A DNA stretch of 32,000 nt from Halomicrobium mukohataei DSM 12286 (GTDB lineage: Archaea > Halobacteriota > Halobacteria > Halobacteriales > Haloarculaceae). Below are positions 6,251 to 27,986 of the stretch, piece after piece (position 1 is the stretch's first letter; the number at the start of each line of letters is the position of its first letter). The notes beneath the pieces were generated by a model, which saw only the letters and a list, made by a program, of their open reading frames with translations, was not told where the DNA came from and searched no databases. The position numbers and the translations under genes are program-made. The stretch is taken from positions 1,170,001 through 1,202,000 of the forward strand of contig NC_013202.1 in the NCBI RefSeq assembly GCF_000023965.1, written 5' to 3'.

Positions 6251-7495
6251 ATGAGTCACAGTGAGACAGAGGCCCTCGACGTCGAGTCCATCCGGGACGA
6301 GTTCCCGATCCTCGACCGGGAGTTCGACGGAACGCCGCTCGTGTACCTCGACAACGCGGCGACGAGCCAGACGCCGGACCAGGTCATCGACTCGATCAGT
6401 CACTACTACCGACACTACAACGCCAACGTCCACCGCGGCCTCCACCAGCTGAGTCAGGAGGCCTCGATCGCCTACGAGGAGGCCCACGACCGGGTCGCGG
6501 AGTTCATCGGGGCGAGCGGCGGGCGCAAAGAGGTCGTGTTCACGAAGAACACGACGGAGTCGATGAACACGGTCGCCTACGCGTGGGGGCTCGCCGAGCT
6601 GGGCCCCGGCGACGAGGTCGTCCTCACGGAGATGGAACACCACGCCGCGCTCGTGACCTGGCAACAGATCGCCAAGAAGACCGGCGCGACGGTGAAGTTC
6701 GTGGAGGTCGACGAGGACGGACGCCTCGACATGGACCACGCTCGCGAGCTGATCACCGACGACACCGAGATGGTCAGCGTCGTCCACGTCTCGAACACGC
6801 TGGGGACCGTCAACCCCGTCTCCGAGCTGGCCGACATCGCCCACGATCACGACTCGCTGATCTTCGTCGACGGGGCGCAGTCGGTGCCACACATGCCCGT
6901 CGACGTGGAGGCCATCGACGCGGACTTCTTCGCCTTTTCGGGCCACAAGATGTGTGGTCCGACCGGCGTCGGCGTCCTCTACGGCAAAGAGCACCTGCTC
7001 GACGCGATGCAGCCGTACCTCTACGGGGGAATGATGATCGAGAAGGTGACCTTCGAGGACTCGACGTGGCACGAACTCCCCTGGAAGTTCGAGGCCGGCA
7101 CGCCGGTCATCAGCGAGGGGATCGCACTCGCCGAGGCCTGTGACTACCTCGATTCGATCGGGATGGAGCGCGTCCACCGCCACGGCACGGAACTGGCGGC
7201 GTACGCCTACGACCGCCTCCAGGAGTTCGACGACATCGAGATTCTGGGGCCGGGCGGCGACGAACGGGCCGCGCTGGTCTCGTTCGACATGGACAACGTC
7301 CACGCCCACGACGTTTCGGAGATTCTCAACGCCAACGGCGTCGCCGTCCGCGCGGGCGATCACTGTACGCAGCCGCTACACGACAAGCTCGGCGTCTCCG
7401 CGTCGACGCGGGCTTCGTTCTACATCTACAACACTCGCGAGGAAGTGGACGCGCTGGTCGACGCACTCGATCAGGCCCGCGAGCTGTTCGCGTAG
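6251..7495 (+). CDS. sufS: Cysteine desulfurase, SufS type (class V aminotransferase)
   Basis: 414 aa with a PLP-lysine motif (FSGHKMCGPTGVG) and a catalytic Cys motif (RAGDHCTQP). Confidence 0.9.
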   Translation: MSHSETEALDVESIRDEFPILDREFDGTPLVYLDNAATSQTPDQVIDSISHYYRHYNANVHRGLHQLSQEASIAYEEAHDRVAEFIGASGGRKEVVFTKNTTESMNTVAYAWGLAELGPGDEVVLTEMEHHAALVTWQQIAKKTGATVKFVEVDEDGRLDMDHARELITDDTEMVSVVHVSNTLGTVNPVSELADIAHDHDSLIFVDGAQSVPHMPVDVEAIDADFFAFSGHKMCGPTGVGVLYGKEHLLDAMQPYLYGGMMIEKVTFEDSTWHELPWKFEAGTPVISEGIALAEACDYLDSIGMERVHRHGTELAAYAYDRLQEFDDIEILGPGGDERAALVSFDMDNVHAHDVSEILNANGVAVRAGDHCTQPLHDKLGVSASTRASFYIYNTREEVDALVDALDQARELFA

Positions 7496-7497
7496 CG
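7429..7497. repeat. Direct repeat copy A: last 65 nt of sufS, including the stop codon, plus 2 nt
   Basis: 69/69 nt identical to 7683..7751 (caacactcgcgaggaagtggacgcgctggtcgacgcactcgatcaggcccgcgagctgttcgcgtagcg). Confidence 0.97.
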
Positions 7498-7682
7498 GAC
7501 GAGCATCCGCGCCATAGGCGCGGTTCACCGGTCCGACTGCAGGAGGTCCGGCGTTTTTCGCCCACGTTCGCAAGAGCGCCGCTCTTGCGAGCTCATCAGA
7601 GATCGAAGATTTCTGAGGACGTTTTTGCGCAAGCGGTTCGCGAGTACAGCGAGCGAACCCGCAGAGCAAAAAGGTGGTCTCG
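7498..7682 (+). repeat. Structured intergenic repeat element, copy 1 (plus orientation)
   Basis: Blocks in order:
- GC hairpin at 7507-7523 (ccgcgcc-ata-ggcgcgg).
- TTTTTCGCCCAC.
- Palindrome at 7569-7589 (cgcaagagcg-c-cgctcttgcg).
- Long hairpin module at 7622-7672 (TTTTTGCGC..GGTTCGC-loop-GCGAACC..GCAAAAA).
The block order matches the element at 15306-15464. Confidence 0.8.
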
Positions 7683-7751
7683 CAACACTCGCGAGGAAGT
7701 GGACGCGCTGGTCGACGCACTCGATCAGGCCCGCGAGCTGTTCGCGTAGCG
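7683..7751. repeat. Direct repeat copy B: orphan copy of the sufS 3' end
   Basis: Perfect 69-nt copy of 7429..7497, located 254 bp downstream and not attached to any gene body. Confidence 0.97.
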
Positions 7752-11172: not shown

Positions 11173-11389
11173 CTCCCGCTCGCCGCTTCCGAGGGCCGTG
11201 ACTCACTCCGTTCGTCACGCCCCTCGCTGCTCACGTGTCGTTCACTTCATTCGCTCCCGCTCGCCGCTTTCGAGGGCCGTGACTCACTCCGTTCGTCACG
11301 CCCCTCGCTGCTCACGTGTCGTTCACTTCATTCGCTCCCGCTCGCCGCTTTCGAGGGCCGTGACTCACTCCGTTCGTCACGCCCCTCGC
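11173..11389. repeat. 81-bp tandem repeat, about 2.7 copies, carrying the element core hairpin (minus orientation)
   Basis: GTGACTCACTCCGTTCGTCAC recurs at 11198, 11279 and 11360 (period 81). The copies differ at one position (c/t in cgccgctt[c/t]cgaggg). The array ends 45 nt before the RFC start codon. Confidence 0.95.
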
Positions 11390-11434
11390 GCGCATCCGGA
11401 AAATCCATACCCGTCGCTGGCCAACGACGATTCG

Positions 11435-13201: not shown

Positions 13202-13286
13202 ATAGCGGGCCACGGCGGAGGCCGGTATCGGCCACCCGTGGCTCGACATGGGAAGCTTCCTTAGGATCGAAGCAGTAGCTACGGTC

Positions 13287-15305
13287 ATGAAACGAGAGCC
13301 GCCACAGACCGAAGAGGGCTGGTACGTGTTGCACGACCTGCGCCACGTCGACTGGGACGCCTGGCGGGCGGCCCCCGAACGGGACCGCGACCGAGCGTTG
13401 ACCGACGGGATCGACTATCTGGAGTACTTCGAGGCCGTCGAGGACAGTTCGGAGGGGCAGTCGGCGGTCTACACCGTGCTGGGCGACAAGGCCGATCTCA
13501 TGATCTTGCACCTGCGGCCGACGATGGCCGACCTGGACGCCGCCGAGCGGCAGTTCGAGCAGACCGAGTTCGCCCGCTACACCGAGCAGGCCACCTCCTA
13601 CGTCTCCGTGACGGAGGCCTCGGGCTACACCGAGAAGGCCCGCGAGTACTTCGACGGCGAGGTCGACGACGACTCCGGGCTGGCACAGTACATCCAGGCC
13701 CGTCTACACCCCGACATCCCCGACGAGGAGTTCGTCTGCTTCTACCCGATGAGCAAGCGTCGCGAGCCGGACCAGAACTGGTACGACCTGCCCTTCGCCG
13801 AGCGGGCCGAACACATCAAGCGCCACGGTGACATCGGCCGTCAGTACGGCGGCAAGGTCGAGCAGATGATCGCCGGCTCGATCGGCTTCGACGACCACGA
13901 GTGGGGGATCACGCTCTGGAGCGACGACATGACCCACGTCAAGGACCTGCTGACTCAGATGCGCTTCGATCCCTCGACCTCGAAGTTCGCCGACTTCGGG
14001 CGCTTCTACGTCGGTCGCCGATTCGCGCCGTCGGACCTGCCGGCGATGATGAACGGCCAGCGCGTCCCGTCCGCGGGCGCGAACGCATCGGGAGCGACGA
14101 CCGACGGACGCGCCCAGCCCACCGACGGAGACCATCCCGGTACCCGCGAGACCGCGACGGCCGGCCAGTCCGGCGACGCGGGCAGTCACGGCGGCGTCCA
14201 TCCGGGCAGTTCCGCCGAGGGCGACCACCCCCACGACGGCGGCGACGTGGCCAGCCGAGACGGGGAAGCCGACGAGGCGAGCGAGAGCGGCGACGGCCAC
14301 CCCGATGGCGGCGGCCGTCCAGACCCCGGTGACGCGTCCTACGAGGAGACCGACGACCTCGCACAGCGCCTCGCCACGATGGGGCTGTCCGAGGGCGAGG
14401 ACTACGACGCTGGCGACTACGGACTGCTGTTCTACTCGGAGAGCGACGCCGAGGCACTGGCCGACGAAGTCGCGGATCTCCGGGAGAGCTTCGACCACTA
14501 CGACCGCCACGTCGCGACGACCGTGCGCGCCCAGAGCGGCCGGGCGGCCGTCGTGAGCATCTGGACCGCACAGGAAGCCGCCGAGACCGCCGCCGGGTTC
14601 CTGGGCGACGTGTCCGGGGTCAGCGACACCTACGGGGGCCGCCTCGGCGAGGGAGCCGCCGACGAGCCCGAGCCGACGACGGCGAACTCCAGCGAGGAGA
14701 TCCAGCAGCAACTTGCCGATGCAAACGTCTACGCCGGACAGCCGAACGGAGAGGACGTGTTCGCGCTGGTGCTGTACTCCGAGGCCGACCCCGAGACGCT
14801 GTCTACCGAAGTGACCGAGCTCACGGAGAGTTTCGATCACTACGACACACACGAGGGCACTGCGGTCTACGAGGCCGGCGAGCCCCTCGACGCCGCGACG
14901 GCGGACGCCGACCAGCCCCGAGCGGCCGTCGTCAGCCTCTGGGAGACCCAGAGCGCCGCCGACACGGCGAGTGGCTTCCTCACCGACCTCCCGGGGATCG
15001 TCGGCCGCCCCGACGAGGGCGACGGTTTCGGCACGATGGGGATGTTCTACACCGTCGAGCCGGACCACCGCGAGGAGTTCGTCGAGACCTTCGACGAGGT
15101 CGGCGAGCTACTCGACGAGATGGACGGCCACCGAGAGACGACGCTGCTGGCGAACCGCGACGACGTGAACGACATGTTCATCGCGAGCCAGTGGGACAGC
15201 AAGGAAGACGCGATGGCGTTCTTCCGGTCGGACGAGTTCGCCGAGACCGTCCAGTGGGGCCGAACAGTGCTCGCAGACCGTCCTCGGCACGTCTTCCTCG
15301 CCTGA
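13287..15305 (+). CDS. Chlorite dismutase-like (HemQ/Cld family) domain fused to a C-terminal ABM monooxygenase-like domain (PitA-like), with a long acidic insertion
   Basis: The N-terminal about 250 aa are Cld-like (WYVLHDLRHVDW...FYPMSKRR...RHGDIGRQYGG...). The C-terminal about 95 aa form an ABM fold (GMFYTVEPDHREEFVETFDEV...FIASQWDSKEDAMAFFRSDEF). About 300 aa of D/E/G/H-rich linker plus two internal repeats lie between them. An alternative start exists at 13248. Confidence 0.8.
   Translation: MKREPPQTEEGWYVLHDLRHVDWDAWRAAPERDRDRALTDGIDYLEYFEAVEDSSEGQSAVYTVLGDKADLMILHLRPTMADLDAAERQFEQTEFARYTEQATSYVSVTEASGYTEKAREYFDGEVDDDSGLAQYIQARLHPDIPDEEFVCFYPMSKRREPDQNWYDLPFAERAEHIKRHGDIGRQYGGKVEQMIAGSIGFDDHEWGITLWSDDMTHVKDLLTQMRFDPSTSKFADFGRFYVGRRFAPSDLPAMMNGQRVPSAGANASGATTDGRAQPTDGDHPGTRETATAGQSGDAGSHGGVHPGSSAEGDHPHDGGDVASRDGEADEASESGDGHPDGGGRPDPGDASYEETDDLAQRLATMGLSEGEDYDAGDYGLLFYSESDAEALADEVADLRESFDHYDRHVATTVRAQSGRAAVVSIWTAQEAAETAAGFLGDVSGVSDTYGGRLGEGAADEPEPTTANSSEEIQQQLADANVYAGQPNGEDVFALVLYSEADPETLSTEVTELTESFDHYDTHEGTAVYEAGEPLDAATADADQPRAAVVSLWETQSAADTASGFLTDLPGIVGRPDEGDGFGTMGMFYTVEPDHREEFVETFDEVGELLDEMDGHRETTLLANRDDVNDMFIASQWDSKEDAMAFFRSDEFAETVQWGRTVLADRPRHVFLA
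15255..15305. repeat. Diverged direct repeat copy A: last 16 codons plus stop of the pitA-like gene
   Basis: Encodes WGRTVLADRPRHVFLA*. Pairs with 15465..15515. Confidence 0.85.
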
Positions 15306-15464
15306 GAACGGCCACGAGTGACGCGAGTGGCCGCTTTTTCGCCACCGGGAGAGCAAGCTCTCCCGAGCCCACACTCGCTTTGCTCGCGTGGACCGCGTTT
15401 TTGCGCGAGGGTTCCCGCAACGAACGGAGTGAGTGAAGAAACCCGACGCGGAAAAAGGAGGAGT
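15306..15464 (+). repeat. Structured intergenic repeat element, copy 2 (plus orientation)
   Basis: Blocks in order:
- Hairpin at 15310-15332 (ggccac..gtggcc) followed by T5 at 15335-15339.
- TTTTTCGCCAC.
- Palindrome at 15346-15365 (cgggagagc-aa-gctctcccg).
- Hairpin module at 15398-15456 (TTTTTGCGCGAGGGTT...CGAACGGAGTGAGTGA...AACCCGACGCGGAAAAA). Confidence 0.8.
15310..15339 (+). terminator. Possible transcription terminator (GC hairpin followed by T5)
   Basis: ggccac-N11-gtggcc, then gcTTTTT, beginning 5 nt after the stop codon. Oligo-T tracts are the known archaeal termination signal. Confidence 0.4.
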
Positions 15465-15515
15465 TGGGGGCGGACGGTGCTGACCGACCGTCCGCGCCAC
15501 GTCTTCCTAGCATAG
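15465..15515. repeat. Diverged direct repeat copy B: orphan 3' end encoding WGRTVLTDRPRHVFLA*
   Basis: 39/51 nt identical to copy A. The differences are almost all third-position synonymous, and an in-frame stop is retained (TAG versus TGA). Confidence 0.85.
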
Positions 15516-15593
15516 CGAGGGGGCACCACGGTCACTCTAACCGCGTTTTGAGCGACGGAACGTACTTTGTCGGTCGAGGCGGTGCGTGCGTGT

Positions 15594-16145
15594 ATGAACC
15601 GACGCGGCTTCCTCGCGGCACTGACCGGCGGCGGCCTCGCCGCGGCCAGTGGCTTCTCGACGCATCGACCGCGCCTGATCGATGGCGCGCGGCGCGGTCG
15701 GGGTGACCCCGTCTCGGTGACGCGGACGATCACCGACGAGTCGATCACGTACGACGCCGATCGAGGAACGGTCCGCTATCCGACGCTGGTCGGGAGCGAC
15801 GGGCCGATCGAACACGAGTCGGAACCGTTCGTGCTGTGGGCGAACCGGCGCTGTGCCAGCGTCGGCTCGGAGGTCGTGCTCCCGGCGATCGCGGATCGCG
15901 TCGACGGAGAACCGACCGGGATCGGGAAGGGAGTCAGCGGTACGTCCTTCGGGCTGGCGATCACCGTCTCGGCGACGACGACACGCGACCGCGATGGGAC
16001 CGTCGTCAGCGAACCGAGCGTCCCGCTGGAGCGACTCGTGGCAGTGACGCCAGCGAGCGTCTCCGCCACGATCCAGTTCGACGGGCGAGAACACACCCGC
16101 CACGTCCCGGTGTTCGTCGAGGAGAGCGAAGTGAGCTACCTGTAG
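15594..16145 (+). CDS. Tat-signal secreted protein, function unknown
   Basis: ATG at 15594 gives MNRRGFLAALTGGGLAAASG (twin-arginine signal). No family recognised for the mature part. Confidence 0.62.
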   Translation: MNRRGFLAALTGGGLAAASGFSTHRPRLIDGARRGRGDPVSVTRTITDESITYDADRGTVRYPTLVGSDGPIEHESEPFVLWANRRCASVGSEVVLPAIADRVDGEPTGIGKGVSGTSFGLAITVSATTTRDRDGTVVSEPSVPLERLVAVTPASVSATIQFDGREHTRHVPVFVEESEVSYL

Positions 16146-18083: not shown

Positions 18084-19084
18084 AACGCTCTTGTGAAGCA
18101 CGTTGTTGATTTTCAGAGTGCGGCGTTGAGAGCATGTTTGAGTGCTTCGTCACCTGGTTTTCTGTAGAGTTCACGGCGGAGTTCGAAGGCTCTGAGATAC
18201 GGCGTTAGCTTGTCTTTCGAGACGCCTCGATGGGGGCGAGAGCCACCGTCGCGTCAGCGACGCGTGGCTCTCGCAGCCGTTGACGTGTACTTCGCCATCA
18301 GCGTATTCACCGTCGCTGTGGACGACGTATTTGCGGGTGAATGAGTCGTCGTCTTCTAGTGGGTCGTAGGCCCGAAATCCGTCCGTATAGACGGTCAGTG
18401 ACTCCTCTTCGTGGTCAGCAAGCAGGAGTCGAACGGTCGATTCGTCAGCGGATTTCGCTGGCACGACGTACCGCTCGTCCGAACCACGATCGACGAGCGT
18501 GAACACCGGCGGTTTGTCGCCGTCGTACGATCCCCGTCCACGCGTGGACAGGCCACGCGAGCGCGACTCCTGGTCACGCTCGCGGCCTTTGAGACCAGCA
18601 GAGACGTACACTTCGTCGATTTCGACCGGTCCAGACAGCGTAATCGAAGGCGCGTCGAGAGTTCTGGCGAACTGCTCGACGTGCCGTCTCACCGTCCGGT
18701 AGGAACAATCAAGCTCTGCCTCGATTTGCCGAATACTCGTGTTGAACCGTAAGAACACGTAGATCGTGAAGTACCATTCTTTGAGCTTCAGCTTCGAGTG
18801 AGCGAAGATCGTGTCGGTCTTGTCGTTGAACGTGCGACCGCAATTCTTACACAGATACCGTTGATACACCCGGTAGCTGCCGTTTCTGACCGTCAGGTCA
18901 GAACGGCAGCGGGGGCACTCGACGCCATCACGCCAGCGAACCTGTTCCAGCAGGTCCGCTGCAGCCGATTCCGACACGAACCGGCTTATTGGGAACATAT
19001 CGGGCACCGCTAGCGCGGTGCCCTTGCCCTCTTCGACTTTCAGCTCCAGCCATCGCTATCAACAATCTCCTTCGCAAGAGCGTT
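18084..19084 (-). mobile_element. IS1595-family insertion sequence (ISH4-like size, about 1.0 kb)
   Basis: Imperfect terminal inverted repeats: AACGCTCTTGTGAAGCACGTTGTTGAT (left) versus the reverse complement of the right end, AACGCTCTTGCGAAGGAGATTGTTGAT. It encloses a transposase gene. I found no matching target-site duplication. Confidence 0.85.
18113..19007 (-). pseudogene. IS1595-family transposase, interrupted by a 1-nt frameshift in a C5 run
   Basis: N-terminal zinc ribbon (CPRCRS...CKNCGRTF) and a DDE core. The ORF-track reading ends ...RRWLSPPSRRLERQ.... Removing one C of the run at 18232-18236 restores ...WLSPHRGVSKDKLTPYLRAFELRRELYRKPGDEALKHALNAAL*, ending at 18113. Confidence 0.8.
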
Positions 19085-20327
19085 GAGCTCTTTTTCCCGG
19101 TTTTCAGAACACTTCACCGCGGAGCTGAAATGCTTGGAAATACGGTGTACGCTCGTGTGAAGCACGTTGTTGGTAAATCAGAGGACGGTTCGAACGATTT
19201 CTTTGAGCGCTTCTTCACCGGGTTTGCGTAGGATTCGTCAGCGAAGTTGGAATACTCTGAGATACGGCGTCAGTTTGTCTTTGGAGACTCCTCGCAGGTA
19301 TTCACGTGTGCGTCTCCATCCACGTATTCACCCTCGCTGTGAATGACCGCTTCTCGCTGGTAGTGCTCGTCGTCTTCGAGTGGATCGTACGCTCGAAATC
19401 CATCAGTATAGCTGGTTAGCGACTCTTCCTCGCAGTCGCCGAGGAGGAGTCGCACGGTCGATTCGTCAGCGGATTTCGCCGAGACAACGTAGCGCTCACC
19501 CCTGCCACGATCGACCAACGTGAACACCGGTGGTTTGTCACCATCGTACGATCCTCGTCCACGCGTGGACAGACCACGCGAGCGCGACTCTTGATCGTGC
19601 TCGTGGCCCTTCAGCCCCGCAGTCACGTAGACTTCGCCGATTTCGGCCGGGCCAACGAGGCTGATGGCTGGCGCGTCGAGCGTTCTGGCGAACTGCTCGA
19701 CGCGCCGCCATAGTGACCGATACGAAACGGGGAGTTCAGCGTCCAACTGGTGGATACTCGTGTTGAACCGAAGAAACGAGTAGAACGCGAACAAGAGCTT
19801 GTCGGGAGCTTGTCCTCAGCGTATGTTCCACGTCCGCTCGTGAACAGGTCGCACTCGTGGCCCTTGAGACCCACTTTCATGTAGAACTCGTCGGTCTTAA
19901 CGGGGCTTTCGAGGTATGGTTGAGGCAAGCGCGTTCAGCGCTTGCAGGAAGCGCTGACACGCCGGTGGACCGTCTTGTAAGAAACGTCAATTTCTGCGTC
20001 TAGCTGCCTGAGACTCGTGTTCAAGCAGATGTGGATGTAGACGGCGAGAACTCACTTTCTGAGCGCGACCGTATAGTATTCGAAGATTGTGCCAGTCTGA
20101 TCGTTGAATGTGCGGTCGCAATTATCCCATAGAAGCTCTGAAACACTCGATAACTGCCGTACCGAATCACAGATCGGCACAGTAGCGTGGGAAATAGGCC
20201 GTCGCGCCGAGACGAACGCCTTGATTGGCATCATCGTTTGTCGGGTGATACGGTCACGTCACCCTTGCCTGCTGTGACTTCCAGTTACTGGTGAGAACTG
20301 ACCAACAATCTTCTACCCAAGAGCGTC
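19085..20327 (-). mobile_element. Mosaic of degraded IS1595-family copies (at least two)
   Basis: Components:
- 19085-19148: C-terminal remnant (TPYFQAFQLRGEVF*KPG).
- About 19149: a second left IR (ACGCTCGTGTGAAGCACGTTGTTGG).
- 19270-19794: truncated transposase core.
- 19800-20234: a more diverged copy with stops (NTSLRQLDAEIDVSYKTV..., CDRTFNDQTGTIF).
- About 20303-20327: right IR (reverse complement ACGCTCTTGGGTAGAAGATTGTTGGT). Confidence 0.75.
19270..19794 (-). pseudogene. IS1595-family transposase fragment lacking the zinc-ribbon N-terminus, with a C-terminal deletion and frameshift
   Basis: 174 aa, closely similar to residues about 80-250 of the 18171-19007 ORF (FLRFNTSI.Q..AEL..SYR...R.VEQFARTLDAP...GLKG.E.DQESRSRGLSTRGRGSYDGDKPPVFTLVDRG). 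It ends abnormally after VNTCE. The downstream frame has an internal stop (QLR*RILRKPG). Confidence 0.8.
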
Positions 20328-27317: not shown

Positions 27318-27369
27318 GGTGCTGGGATAGTCGCAGCCGTCGCTTAAGCACTGTGCTCCACCCGCGACA

Positions 27370-27450
27370 GCAAGCATATACCTGCCCGCGATCTACCGCA
27401 GACTATGGCTCAACGCTCTCTGGTCGTCTGTGCTCTCTGGTTCGTCTTCG
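27370..27450. repeat. Direct repeat copy A: orphan copy of the yccF-like promoter plus the first 46 nt of its CDS
   Basis: Aligns with 27574..27654 at an offset of 204. It includes the TATA-like catata (27375-27380) and an ATG at 27405, which opens a 39-codon decoy ORF (MAQRSLVVCALWFVFDDRFPRR...*, stop at 27522-27524). Confidence 0.9.
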
Positions 27451-27573
27451 ACGACCGTTTTCCGCGTCGGGTCTCCTCGCTCGCTCCGCTCGCTGCGGGG
27501 ACCCTCGCGCAAAACCGTCGATGAAAAAGGCAGCCACTCACTCCGTTCGTGGCTGATGCTGCTCTCCTCGCCC
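27451..27573 (-). repeat. Structured intergenic repeat element, copy 3 (minus orientation, short form)
   Basis: Read as the reverse complement:
- GAGCAGCATCA.
- Hairpin gccac-GAACGGAGTGA-gtggc (27533-27553), followed by CTTTTTC.
- Hairpin module GTTTTGCGCGAGGGTC...GACCCGACGCGGAAAAC (27458-27514).
It lacks the central palindrome block of copies 1 and 2. Confidence 0.8.
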
Positions 27574-27654
27574 GCAAGCATATACCTGCCCGCGATCTAT
27601 CGCCCGACATGGCTCAACGCTCGCTGGTCGTCCGTGCTCTCTGGTTCGTCTTCG
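27574..27654. repeat. Direct repeat copy B: functional promoter and 5' end of the yccF-like gene
   Basis: Differs from copy A at only 2 positions within the 46 coding nt (one synonymous, one Cys/Arg). Several more changes lie in the about 15 nt before the ATG. Confidence 0.9.
27579..27584 (+). promoter_or_regulatory. TATA-like box for a probably leaderless yccF-like transcript
   Basis: catata is centred about 27 nt upstream of the ATG at 27609, the spacing expected for haloarchaeal leaderless mRNAs. An identical box lies upstream of the decoy ATG at 27405. Confidence 0.35.
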
Positions 27655-27986
27655 TCGGCTGGTGGCTCACGCCGATTCTGGTCAACGTCGCGTGGCTGTT
27701 GAACGTTACCGTGATCTTGCTTCCGTTCGGGATCAAGCTCATCAACCTCGTCCCGACGGCGCTGACGCTGGCCGAACCCCGATCGCTGGCCGAGGGAACC
27801 GGCGCGTCACAGCCGTCGCTCGTGGTGCGGGCGATCTACTTCGTGCTCGTGGGCTGGTGGCTCTCGTGGCTGTGGGCCAACGTCGCCGCCGCGCTGTCGA
27901 TGACGATCGTCGGCATTCCGATCGCGATCTGGCTGTTCAACCGGCTTCCGTACGTCACGTCGCTGTACCGATTCCACGGGCGATAG
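27609..27986 (+). CDS. YccF-like (DUF307) inner membrane protein
   Basis: Two internal repeats of the YccF motif (RALWFVFVGWWL... and RAIYFVLVGWWLSWLW...GIPIAIW). Confidence 0.8.
   Translation: MAQRSLVVRALWFVFVGWWLTPILVNVAWLLNVTVILLPFGIKLINLVPTALTLAEPRSLAEGTGASQPSLVVRAIYFVLVGWWLSWLWANVAAALSMTIVGIPIAIWLFNRLPYVTSLYRFHGR

Follow-up and report, generated by a model that had tools for sequence, protein, structure and literature searches.

How can a stray copy of a gene end look as if selection had kept it? The question is raised by a PitA-like gene in the 32,000 nt of the Halomicrobium mukohataei DSM 12286 genome that we have analyzed (NC_013202.1, positions 1,170,001 to 1,202,000; this whole stretch is called the window, and its first letter is position 1). 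The functional end of the gene (copy A) is followed by a spacer of 159 nt, made up of a terminator-like hairpin and a member of a family of palindromic elements, and then by a second, orphan gene end (copy B; coordinates in Table 1). A previous analysis of the letters alone (the sequence-only reading) had located the two 51-nt ends and counted 12 differences and an in-frame stop in each, all of which was borne out when we re-aligned them directly. Ten of the 12 differences are found at codon position 3, with one each at positions 1 and 2, and a test of the synonymous excess gave a significant third-position bias (hypergeometric P=7.1e-5 for at least 10 of 12 on 17 third positions). Copy A codes for WGRTVLADRPRHVFLA and stops with TGA, copy B codes for WGRTVLTDRPRHVFLA and stops with TAG. 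The label pitA-like was also correct, the product having the Pfam domains Chlor_dismutase and ABM; both entries (PF06778 and PF03992) come precomputed, for the identical protein as well as for every close homologue, which is the architecture of a Cld-ABM fusion.

When these gene ends are compared with those of related genomes, copy A is of the Halomicrobium katesii type and copy B is nearest to the type found on the metagenomic contig L148. The functional PitA encoded there (P0005, 80% identical) ends in exactly the peptide of copy B, Thr included. The L148 locus has no element; its gene ends with TAG, followed directly by CGAGG, with no hairpin, and by the flank CCGCGTTTTGAGCGACGGAACGTACTTT, an arrangement common only to this genome and L148. 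The two gene ends differ at 8 nt, all eight of them synonymous, and the flank of copy B is 86% identical to that of L148 and 66% to that of strain WOYG01. A three-way alignment has 46 informative sites between 15465 and 15614; at 31 of them this genome matches L148 and at the other 15 WOYG01. Between 15615 and 15764 it matches WOYG01 at 29 of 31 and L148 at only 2 (Fisher P=7e-8). The sequence is Halomicrobium-typical from about 15606, and from 16079 onward it is 99% katesii-like. Judging from these alignments, the foreign patch that includes copy B measures about 140 nt and has its left end at the junction between element and repeat, as homology with an element-free donor begins at that point. 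Our explanation, which we consider probable, is that copy B was imported by recombination, being a once-functional gene end of another lineage and neither a decayed duplicate nor a translated open reading frame (ORF). The proposal of the sequence-only reading that both copies had been shaped as functional ends before their juxtaposition is supported in this way, copy B being the C-terminus of P0005/L148 within a recombination patch. Another stretch of the window, 12708 to about 12860, is about 25% divergent from H. katesii and from strain IBSBa alike, the two of which differ mutually by 2–8%. It is likely another import from a divergent lineage, to judge by the same kind of comparison, and lies away from any element, indicating that such imports happen in this genome without one.

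The arrangement of gene end, hairpin, element and gene end is not private to this strain. We found it, with the junction GGTGGAGTC followed by GGGG, in five other Halomicrobium genomes, H. katesii, strains KBTZ05 and WOYG01 and the metagenomic contig L147 among them. In these relatives the hairpin stands 3' of both copies and the palindromic core is in common, so that the original duplication was longer than 51 nt, including the terminator hairpin and reaching about 83–95 nt in total. An identical junction is present in the Halobacteria archaeon HArc-gm2, the PitA of which is 66% identical to the one of this genome, and a Halobacteriaceae metagenome-assembled genome (MAG L017, PitA about 42% identical) has the module with the first 9 nt of the orphan lost at the junction. 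On this comparative evidence the module is old and shared. Strain IBSBa has one copy plus the hairpin, in a sequence that nests among the filled relatives, and its single copy would most simply be a loss by recombination between the repeats.

A distance matrix over 48 nt of all the copies clustered them by genome and not by position. Copies within one genome differed by 0–2 nt (H. katesii, KBTZ05, WOYG01, L147 and HArc-gm2), and the three haplotype groups (copy A with both H. katesii copies, the IBSBa-type copies, and copy B alone) differed from each other by 9–14. Upstream of the element, copy A and its gene are katesii-like (2 differences in 51 nt and about 3% at third positions). This pattern is the one of concerted evolution of the copies at the pitA locus, as far as alignments can tell, and gene conversion would be the homogenising process.

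The bias is not a peculiarity of one gene end either. We compared in frame the functional copy and the orphan at 18 element-bearing loci. Their divergence went from 0% to 24%, many of the pairs being 100% identical, and the differences were distributed 7/7/53 over codon positions 1/2/3 (53 of 67 at the third). Of the changed codons, 49 were synonymous and 10 non-synonymous. All 18 orphans kept the frame and an in-frame stop at the matching place, with the stop codon switched in seven. A neutral orphan facing a constrained gene would be expected to give about 47% of differences at position 3, compared with the 79% observed (P=1e-7).

The element itself belongs to a family that we characterized by scanning metagenome contigs for TTTTCGCCCACGTTTT; the figures that follow refer to the matches listed plus the genome loci. 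There are at least 54 complete elements of the form CCCACG-T4-6-palindrome-A4-6-GGTGG (also written TTTTCG-CCCACG-T5-palindrome-A5-GGTGG) in high-GC, hypersaline contigs and in genome loci, with longer versions that carry an extra AGCATCC-hairpin-TTCACC-hairpin-T5-CG at the left. They are 44–190 nt long and non-coding, and where the right end was missing, the match was a degenerate end, an interrupted copy or a chance hit in DNA that is low in GC or not from halophiles. The ends of the core are imperfectly inverted (CCACG-T5 and A5-GGTGG), the full-length form begins with AGCATCC and has no matching inverted end, and hairpins are present near the termini. Direct repeats of 23–114 nt flank 23 of 53 element copies among the matches listed; the other 30 have no flanking repeat, and a short target-site duplication of fixed length is not seen. 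In the repeat-bearing copies the right repeat begins 0–13 nt after GGTGG and the left one spans the end of an ORF, stop included. A co-directional ORF terminates just left of the element at 18 of 21 distinct repeat-bearing loci, and the gene body is on the CCCACG side at 19 or more of 22. In about half of the copies without repeats, the stop of a convergent gene is found 0–17 nt after GGTGG (0–4 nt in 10 of them). The right end of these repeat-less elements (loci L021–L140) thus abuts a gene end at near-fixed spacing.

The junctions have a signature too. At 11 loci GGTGG is followed by the 3 nt that precede the left copy and then by one or two extra pyrimidines (C, T or CC). The sequence at the pitA junction of the window is GGAGG-AGT-T-GGGGG; its AGT is a repeat of the 3 nt 5' of copy A, and the T after it, the first letter of copy B, is an extra base outside the duplication. 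This is probably the signature of the joining reaction. An origin of the extra bases as P-nucleotides, by hairpin opening, was discarded, since mostly they are not complementary to the adjacent base. Some loci are more complex: L028, from a metagenome, is a tandem array of element, repeat, element, repeat; a degenerate second element is found 3' of the orphan in L099 and L109; the left copy of L099 has its own differing hairpin and an extra codon; and the left spacer of L033 contains a 24-nt unit three times.

The element resembles a bidirectional terminator by its sequence. We do not claim a selected RNA structure, since covariation in the palindrome was weak, with compensatory changes in 4 of 14 pairs in an alignment of 20 sequences. 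No Rfam family matched anywhere in the window at gathering score, and 15200–15600 gave chance-level hits only (E>1). Neither was a partner insertion sequence (IS) found among the fetched loci, nor an IS605-type element with the ends of the family, for which no dedicated search was made. An autonomous, gene-carrying version was absent among the 120 metagenome-matched stretches listed. Similar sequences in haloarchaeal plasmids are unannotated, no matching motif or comparable description turned up in a search of the literature, and the family appears to be previously undescribed.

The spacers show additional insertions and hairpins. The nested insert at 15347–15397 is missing in H. katesii, WOYG01 and L147, and a diverged homologue sits at the identical point in strain KBTZ05 (L145). 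Similar small two-hairpin inserts of about 51–57 nt are found in or next to CGCCCACG (15347–15397, 7567–7621 and about 4553–4610 of L145); their presence varies between close relatives, and they are reminiscent of the SMR elements of Haloquadratum, whose targets are PATE palindromes. The left spacers of many loci (15310–15339 and 27522–27550 in the window; L031, L084, L099) contain hairpins of variable stem with a similar 11-nt loop, for example GAGCGGAGCGA, GAACGGAGTGA or GAACGGCGTGA, followed by C or GC and T5 and recurrent at gene 3' ends. These hairpins could possibly be a separate mobile or selected terminator module.

The history that we propose begins with an ancestral event that would have duplicated the gene end (16 codons plus stop, originally with the hairpin too) around an element located 3' of the pitA-like gene. 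In most genomes gene conversion between the copies would keep the orphan a mirror of the functional copy, which is under selection. Recombination with functional alleles of other lineages could overwrite either copy, a tract that enters the orphan being clipped at the edge of the repeat. Here about 140 nt would have been overwritten by DNA of a donor lineage that had no element and had a functional PitA ending in ...WGRTVLTDRPRHVFLA-TAG; the donor-type end would be a functional gene followed by TAG-CGAGGGGG, with no element after it. The tract would have run from the junction of the element and copy B to a point about 10 nt inside the next gene. Copies A and B would then be alleles of two lineages, each exposed to purifying selection as long as it served as a working gene end or mirrored one, which accounts for differences that are nearly only synonymous and for the conservation of both stops. 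More generally, if the variation that enters the orphan had already been selected in a working gene, synonymous bias would follow with no need of translating the orphan. Clues on the origin of the duplication are the variable length of the repeats, their constant orientation (gene body on the CCCACG side) and the signature at the 11 junctions. As a conjecture, copying may stall just past the palindrome and resume upstream at a microhomology of 3 nt, either within the chromosome or from a homologous donor.

Several facts weigh against this import of copy B. L148 cannot be the donor itself, given the 8 differences in 51 nt and the flank of 86% identity. The palindromic core here differs from the core common to all other Halomicrobium copies at the pitA locus and, L148 having no element, the import leaves this difference unexplained. 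Besides, copy A differs from the IBSBa type at 9–10 of 16 third positions, compared with about 10% in the adjacent 900 nt (P=1e-5). A deep patch in copy A that starts at the beginning of the repeat would call for an extra step, a conversion from orphan to gene, or else favours the movement of a cassette (see below). Gene conversion itself is deduced from the pattern of the copies. Finally, six genomes leave formal room for the reverse polarity, with copy B and its flank as the old resident and everything to their left replaced.

The first explanation of the sequence-only reading, taken literally, has that polarity and makes copy B and its flank a fossil of the resident allele, the gene with its end, hairpin and element having been overwritten from the left by a katesii-like allele whose right crossover lay inside the element. 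It predicts equally well the juxtaposition of two lineages and a breakpoint at the element. We nevertheless find it improbable, since the L148-like ancestry is a short island, and overwriting would have been needed on both sides, leaving just copy B and about 90 nt. Among the explanations put forward by the sequence-only reading, it was allele replacement with a breakpoint at the element that came closest to our own; what changes is that replacement of the orphan side is favoured over that of the resident gene, and that concerted evolution of the copies, which had not been foreseen, is needed as well. Somewhat less improbable, but still unlikely in our opinion, is a model in which the element travels from genome to genome with a gene end that takes the place of the old one. 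Its entry at the homologous position would involve either an excised circle and a Campbell-type crossover, or break-induced copying from one end, halted after the palindrome and sealed through microhomology. In that case the functional left copy would have come with the element, and the right one would be the displaced resident end, as for e14 and phage 21 in icd. This cassette, also suggested before, is consistent with a single junction in three genera with PitA only 42–66% identical, with the jump in functional-copy divergence at the repeat start (the deep patch of copy A), with the gene body on one side in at least 19 of 22 loci, with 3 target nt and 1–2 extra pyrimidines at 11 junctions, with a left copy whose hairpin is at times different and which may even include one more codon (L099), and with an orphan at locus 4 of IBSBa that is nearer than the functional copy to the katesii empty-site allele. 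We rate it below the import since, measured against the closest relative, what is foreign at the pitA locus is the orphan side, whose own nearest relative lacks an element. In addition, no circle, integrase or nuclease was found with the elements, which are 44–190 nt and non-coding, and the many pairs of 100% identity fit local duplication or conversion. A Campbell crossover also predicts one switch point; sites specific for A, B and IBSBa look interleaved by eye, although 4 runs over 10 sites are not significantly off chance.

Selection on copy B itself, either translated (as the C-terminus of ORF 15318–15515 or as a micro-ORF from an in-frame GTG) or acting as a functional RNA, seems to us very unlikely. 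Frame and stop are kept in 18 of 18 surveyed orphans, copy B is in frame with copy A in this genome, with no stop from 15306 to 15515 when read from the sequence, and a GGAGG motif lies 5' of it. Elsewhere the frame breaks down: the offset between copies is not a multiple of 3 in H. katesii and MAG L017 (143 and 151 nt) nor at the aminotransferase locus of the window (254 nt), and the ORF upstream, which crosses non-conserved hairpins, is not conserved in other genomes. ORF 15318–15515 has no Pfam match and no Rfam match was obtained, many unrelated genes show the same pattern, as does a gene 5' end with non-synonymous changes in its orphan, and the foreign patch accounts for the pattern with no selection. 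The earlier suggestion that copy B is still translated finds no support for these reasons. Read-through of the stop joining copy A to copy B was discarded as well: the two share a frame here and in HArc-gm2, whereas in H. katesii, MAG L017 and other loci they do not. A target-site duplication of the ordinary sort, since decayed and with a synonymous excess due to chance or solely to constraint on copy A, is in effect excluded. Long variable target duplications do have a precedent in the haloarchaeal ISH2 (55 bp; PMC7002104), but the bias is too strong for this (P=7e-5 at the locus, and pooled P=1e-7 against a constrained gene with a neutral orphan), and the genome-wide divergence of H. mukohataei and H. 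katesii, about 1–3%, is far too small for a decay of 24%; the foreign patch counts against it as well.

Other mechanisms were tried and rejected. Simple tandem duplication of gene end plus element should leave a second element after the orphan, which was seen only in L099, L109 and the L028 array out of 21 loci. A diversity-generating retroelement was dismissed, as among the 12 differing positions copy B has only four A and copy A four; no reverse-transcriptase-like product was apparent by eye among the translated ORFs of 12–19 kb. An integrase element of the e14/phage 21 type does not fit an insert of 159 nt with no gene and no identical att core, flanked by copies that differ over their whole length. 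There is a broader idea that we hold only as a doubtful possibility, namely that the family is an undescribed mobile module of Halobacteria, a non-coding element that spreads by homology among orthologous genes of different genera. It might do so by break-induced copying or by repeat-mediated excision and re-integration, the spare gene end keeping the target gene intact. If true, the orphan copy would be a port by which foreign alleles enter the functional gene.

How does this family compare with known systems? In Escherichia coli, prophage e14 and phage 21 use the icd gene, where the element is flanked by two versions of the 3' end with mainly synonymous differences, one of them an orphan. 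The likeness to our case is clear, with two gene ends that differ at synonymous sites, one functional and the other orphan. However, those are elements of 20–40 kb with an integrase and a fixed att core in a single gene, whereas here the insert is 60–190 nt, non-coding and found at many genes, and of the two pitA copies it is the orphan that is foreign. The REP and BIME sequences of bacteria are high-copy GC-rich palindromes located just after gene 3' ends, often between convergent genes and terminator-like. They lack duplicated gene ends. The family described here has T5 and A5 tracts that suit archaeal termination, and no RAYT-type partner was found for it, none having been looked for. Haloarchaeal lineages undergo mosaic recombination that imports short divergent tracts, and gene conversion gives concerted repeats. 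What differs here is that one end of the tract is fixed by the edge of the repeat, and by this means variants that selection has already sifted in a functional gene reach a copy that has no function. As for miniature inverted-repeat transposable elements, our elements are like them short, non-coding and in many copies, but lack their short target duplication of fixed length. The PATE and SMR of Haloquadratum walsbyi are small transposase-free repeats with near-terminal palindromes and no short target duplication (PMC3119063). Other mini-elements insert into the palindromic ends of PATE, as do the nested inserts of 51–57 nt here. Long gene-end duplications were not reported by the authors, nor are the conserved motifs of our family present in the supplements of that paper (PMC3119063); the long repeats at 43% of copies among the matches listed are not a feature of PATE. 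ISH2 of Halobacterium salinarum is a small element with a variable target duplication that is occasionally very long, including an "exceedingly long" one of 55 bp, and in one case 18 codons were duplicated (PMC7002104). It is a 520-bp IS with terminal inverted repeats, of a different sequence family, and the long duplication that is exceptional there is found in 23 of 53 copies here among the matches listed.

Table 1. Features of the pitA locus and of the two other element loci in the window (positions 1 to 32,000), with the named junction loci.
Feature	Position	Strand	Description
PitA-like gene (chlorite-dismutase-like + ABM fusion), functional	13248..15305	+	685-codon ORF ending in copy A; PF06778+PF03992
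Copy A	15255..15305	+	Functional last 16 codons + TGA, left copy of direct repeat; same haplotype as both H. katesii copies
Terminator-like hairpin + degenerate left-end motif	15306..15346	+	GGCCAC-GAGTGACGCGA-GTGGCC (15310-15332), T5 (15335-15339), CGCCACC; from sequence and fold
Nested two-hairpin mini-insert, about 51 nt	15347..15397	+	Inside the CGCCCACG motif of the element; from presence/absence among relatives
Palindromic core of element	15398..15461	+	T5, GC-rich palindrome with loop CGAACGGAGTGAGTG, A5, GGAGG
Junction AGT+T	15462..15465	+	3 nt repeated from upstream of copy A + one extra pyrimidine; similar signature at 10 further loci
Copy B	15465..15515	+	Orphan gene end, 16 codons + TAG, right copy of direct repeat; peptide identical to P0005 C-terminus
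Recombination patch of foreign, L148-like ancestry	15465..15605		Copy B, intergenic flank, first codons of next gene
Downstream gene, function not known	15594..16145	+	183 aa from ATG 15594 (192 aa in the ORF list, from TTG 15567); lost by deletion in H. katesii
Aminotransferase gene functional 3' end, left repeat copy (69 nt)	7429..7497	+	Second locus
Full-length element	7498..7682	+	Second locus; AGCAT, hairpin, TTCACC, hairpin, T5-CGCCCACG, nested insert, T5-palindrome-A5-GGTGG
Orphan copy	7683..7751	+	Second locus; 100% identical to 7429-7497
Orphan promoter, 5' untranslated region and first 16 codons of YccF-domain gene	27362..27453	+	Third locus; 92-nt copy
Element in opposite orientation	27454..27565	-	Third locus; core 27455-27517
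Functional promoter + start of YccF-domain gene	27566..27657	+	Third locus; 92-nt copy; ATG at 27606
Junction-signature loci named	window 15462-15465; L001, L012, L031, L033, L084, L097, L099, L100, L112		

The pitA locus is one of three within the 32 kb where an element and a gene-end repeat are found together, the others being at an aminotransferase gene and at a gene for a YccF-domain protein. At the aminotransferase locus the rise of divergence bounded by the repeat is modest (8 of 69 nt compared with a background of about 2–5%), and there are other peaks nearby. The YccF locus involves the 5' end of the gene, and it is the one mentioned above where the orphan does hold non-synonymous changes; its element core is 86% complementary to the one at 15398–15461.

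Regarding the neighborhood of the locus, the PitA-like product is 100% identical to a "heme-binding protein" of Halomicrobium, and assembly GCA_003992375.1 (L003) of the same genus is 100% identical to the window over 14.9 kb, with an identical PitA. The acidic linker of the pitA-like gene contains an internal repeat of 72 nt (14433–14504 and 14775–14846, 75% identity), an old internal duplication, since it is common to all the relatives. In H. katesii a deletion of about 520 nt (L001 12195–12226 compared with about 15560–16078 of the window) has removed nearly the whole downstream gene of 192 aa; it begins directly after the conserved GTTTTGAGCGACGG motif. Synteny with the relatives stops at about 18085, just before a minus-strand ORF (18171–19007) whose product resembles, judged by eye, a zinc-finger insertion-sequence transposase. 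A 300-nt part of this ORF (18346–18645) is repeated at 19367–19666 with 81% identity, in the region of about 19190–20030. Further upstream, at 11173–11415, a unit of 81 nt is repeated about three times in tandem just before the gene of the replication-factor-C small subunit. Each unit holds a hairpin, GTGAC-TCACTCCGTTC-GTCAC, the loop of which is the complement of the loop motif of the element, and H. katesii has apparently one unit only, from BLAST coordinates.

The specific puzzle of this locus has an ordinary cause, recombination between lineages together with gene conversion. An import of about 140 nt, mapped here and derived from a working gene in a different lineage, explains what looked like a dead duplicate under selection. 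This makes the locus a clean example, at the level of sequence, of how inter-lineage recombination can give a segment with no function the appearance of evolving under purifying selection. The element family is abundant at gene 3' ends in hypersaline genomes and metagenomes and merits a genome-wide study. Its repeat pairs are natural markers for the rates of gene conversion and of recombination between lineages, and also for the mechanism of insertion and duplication.

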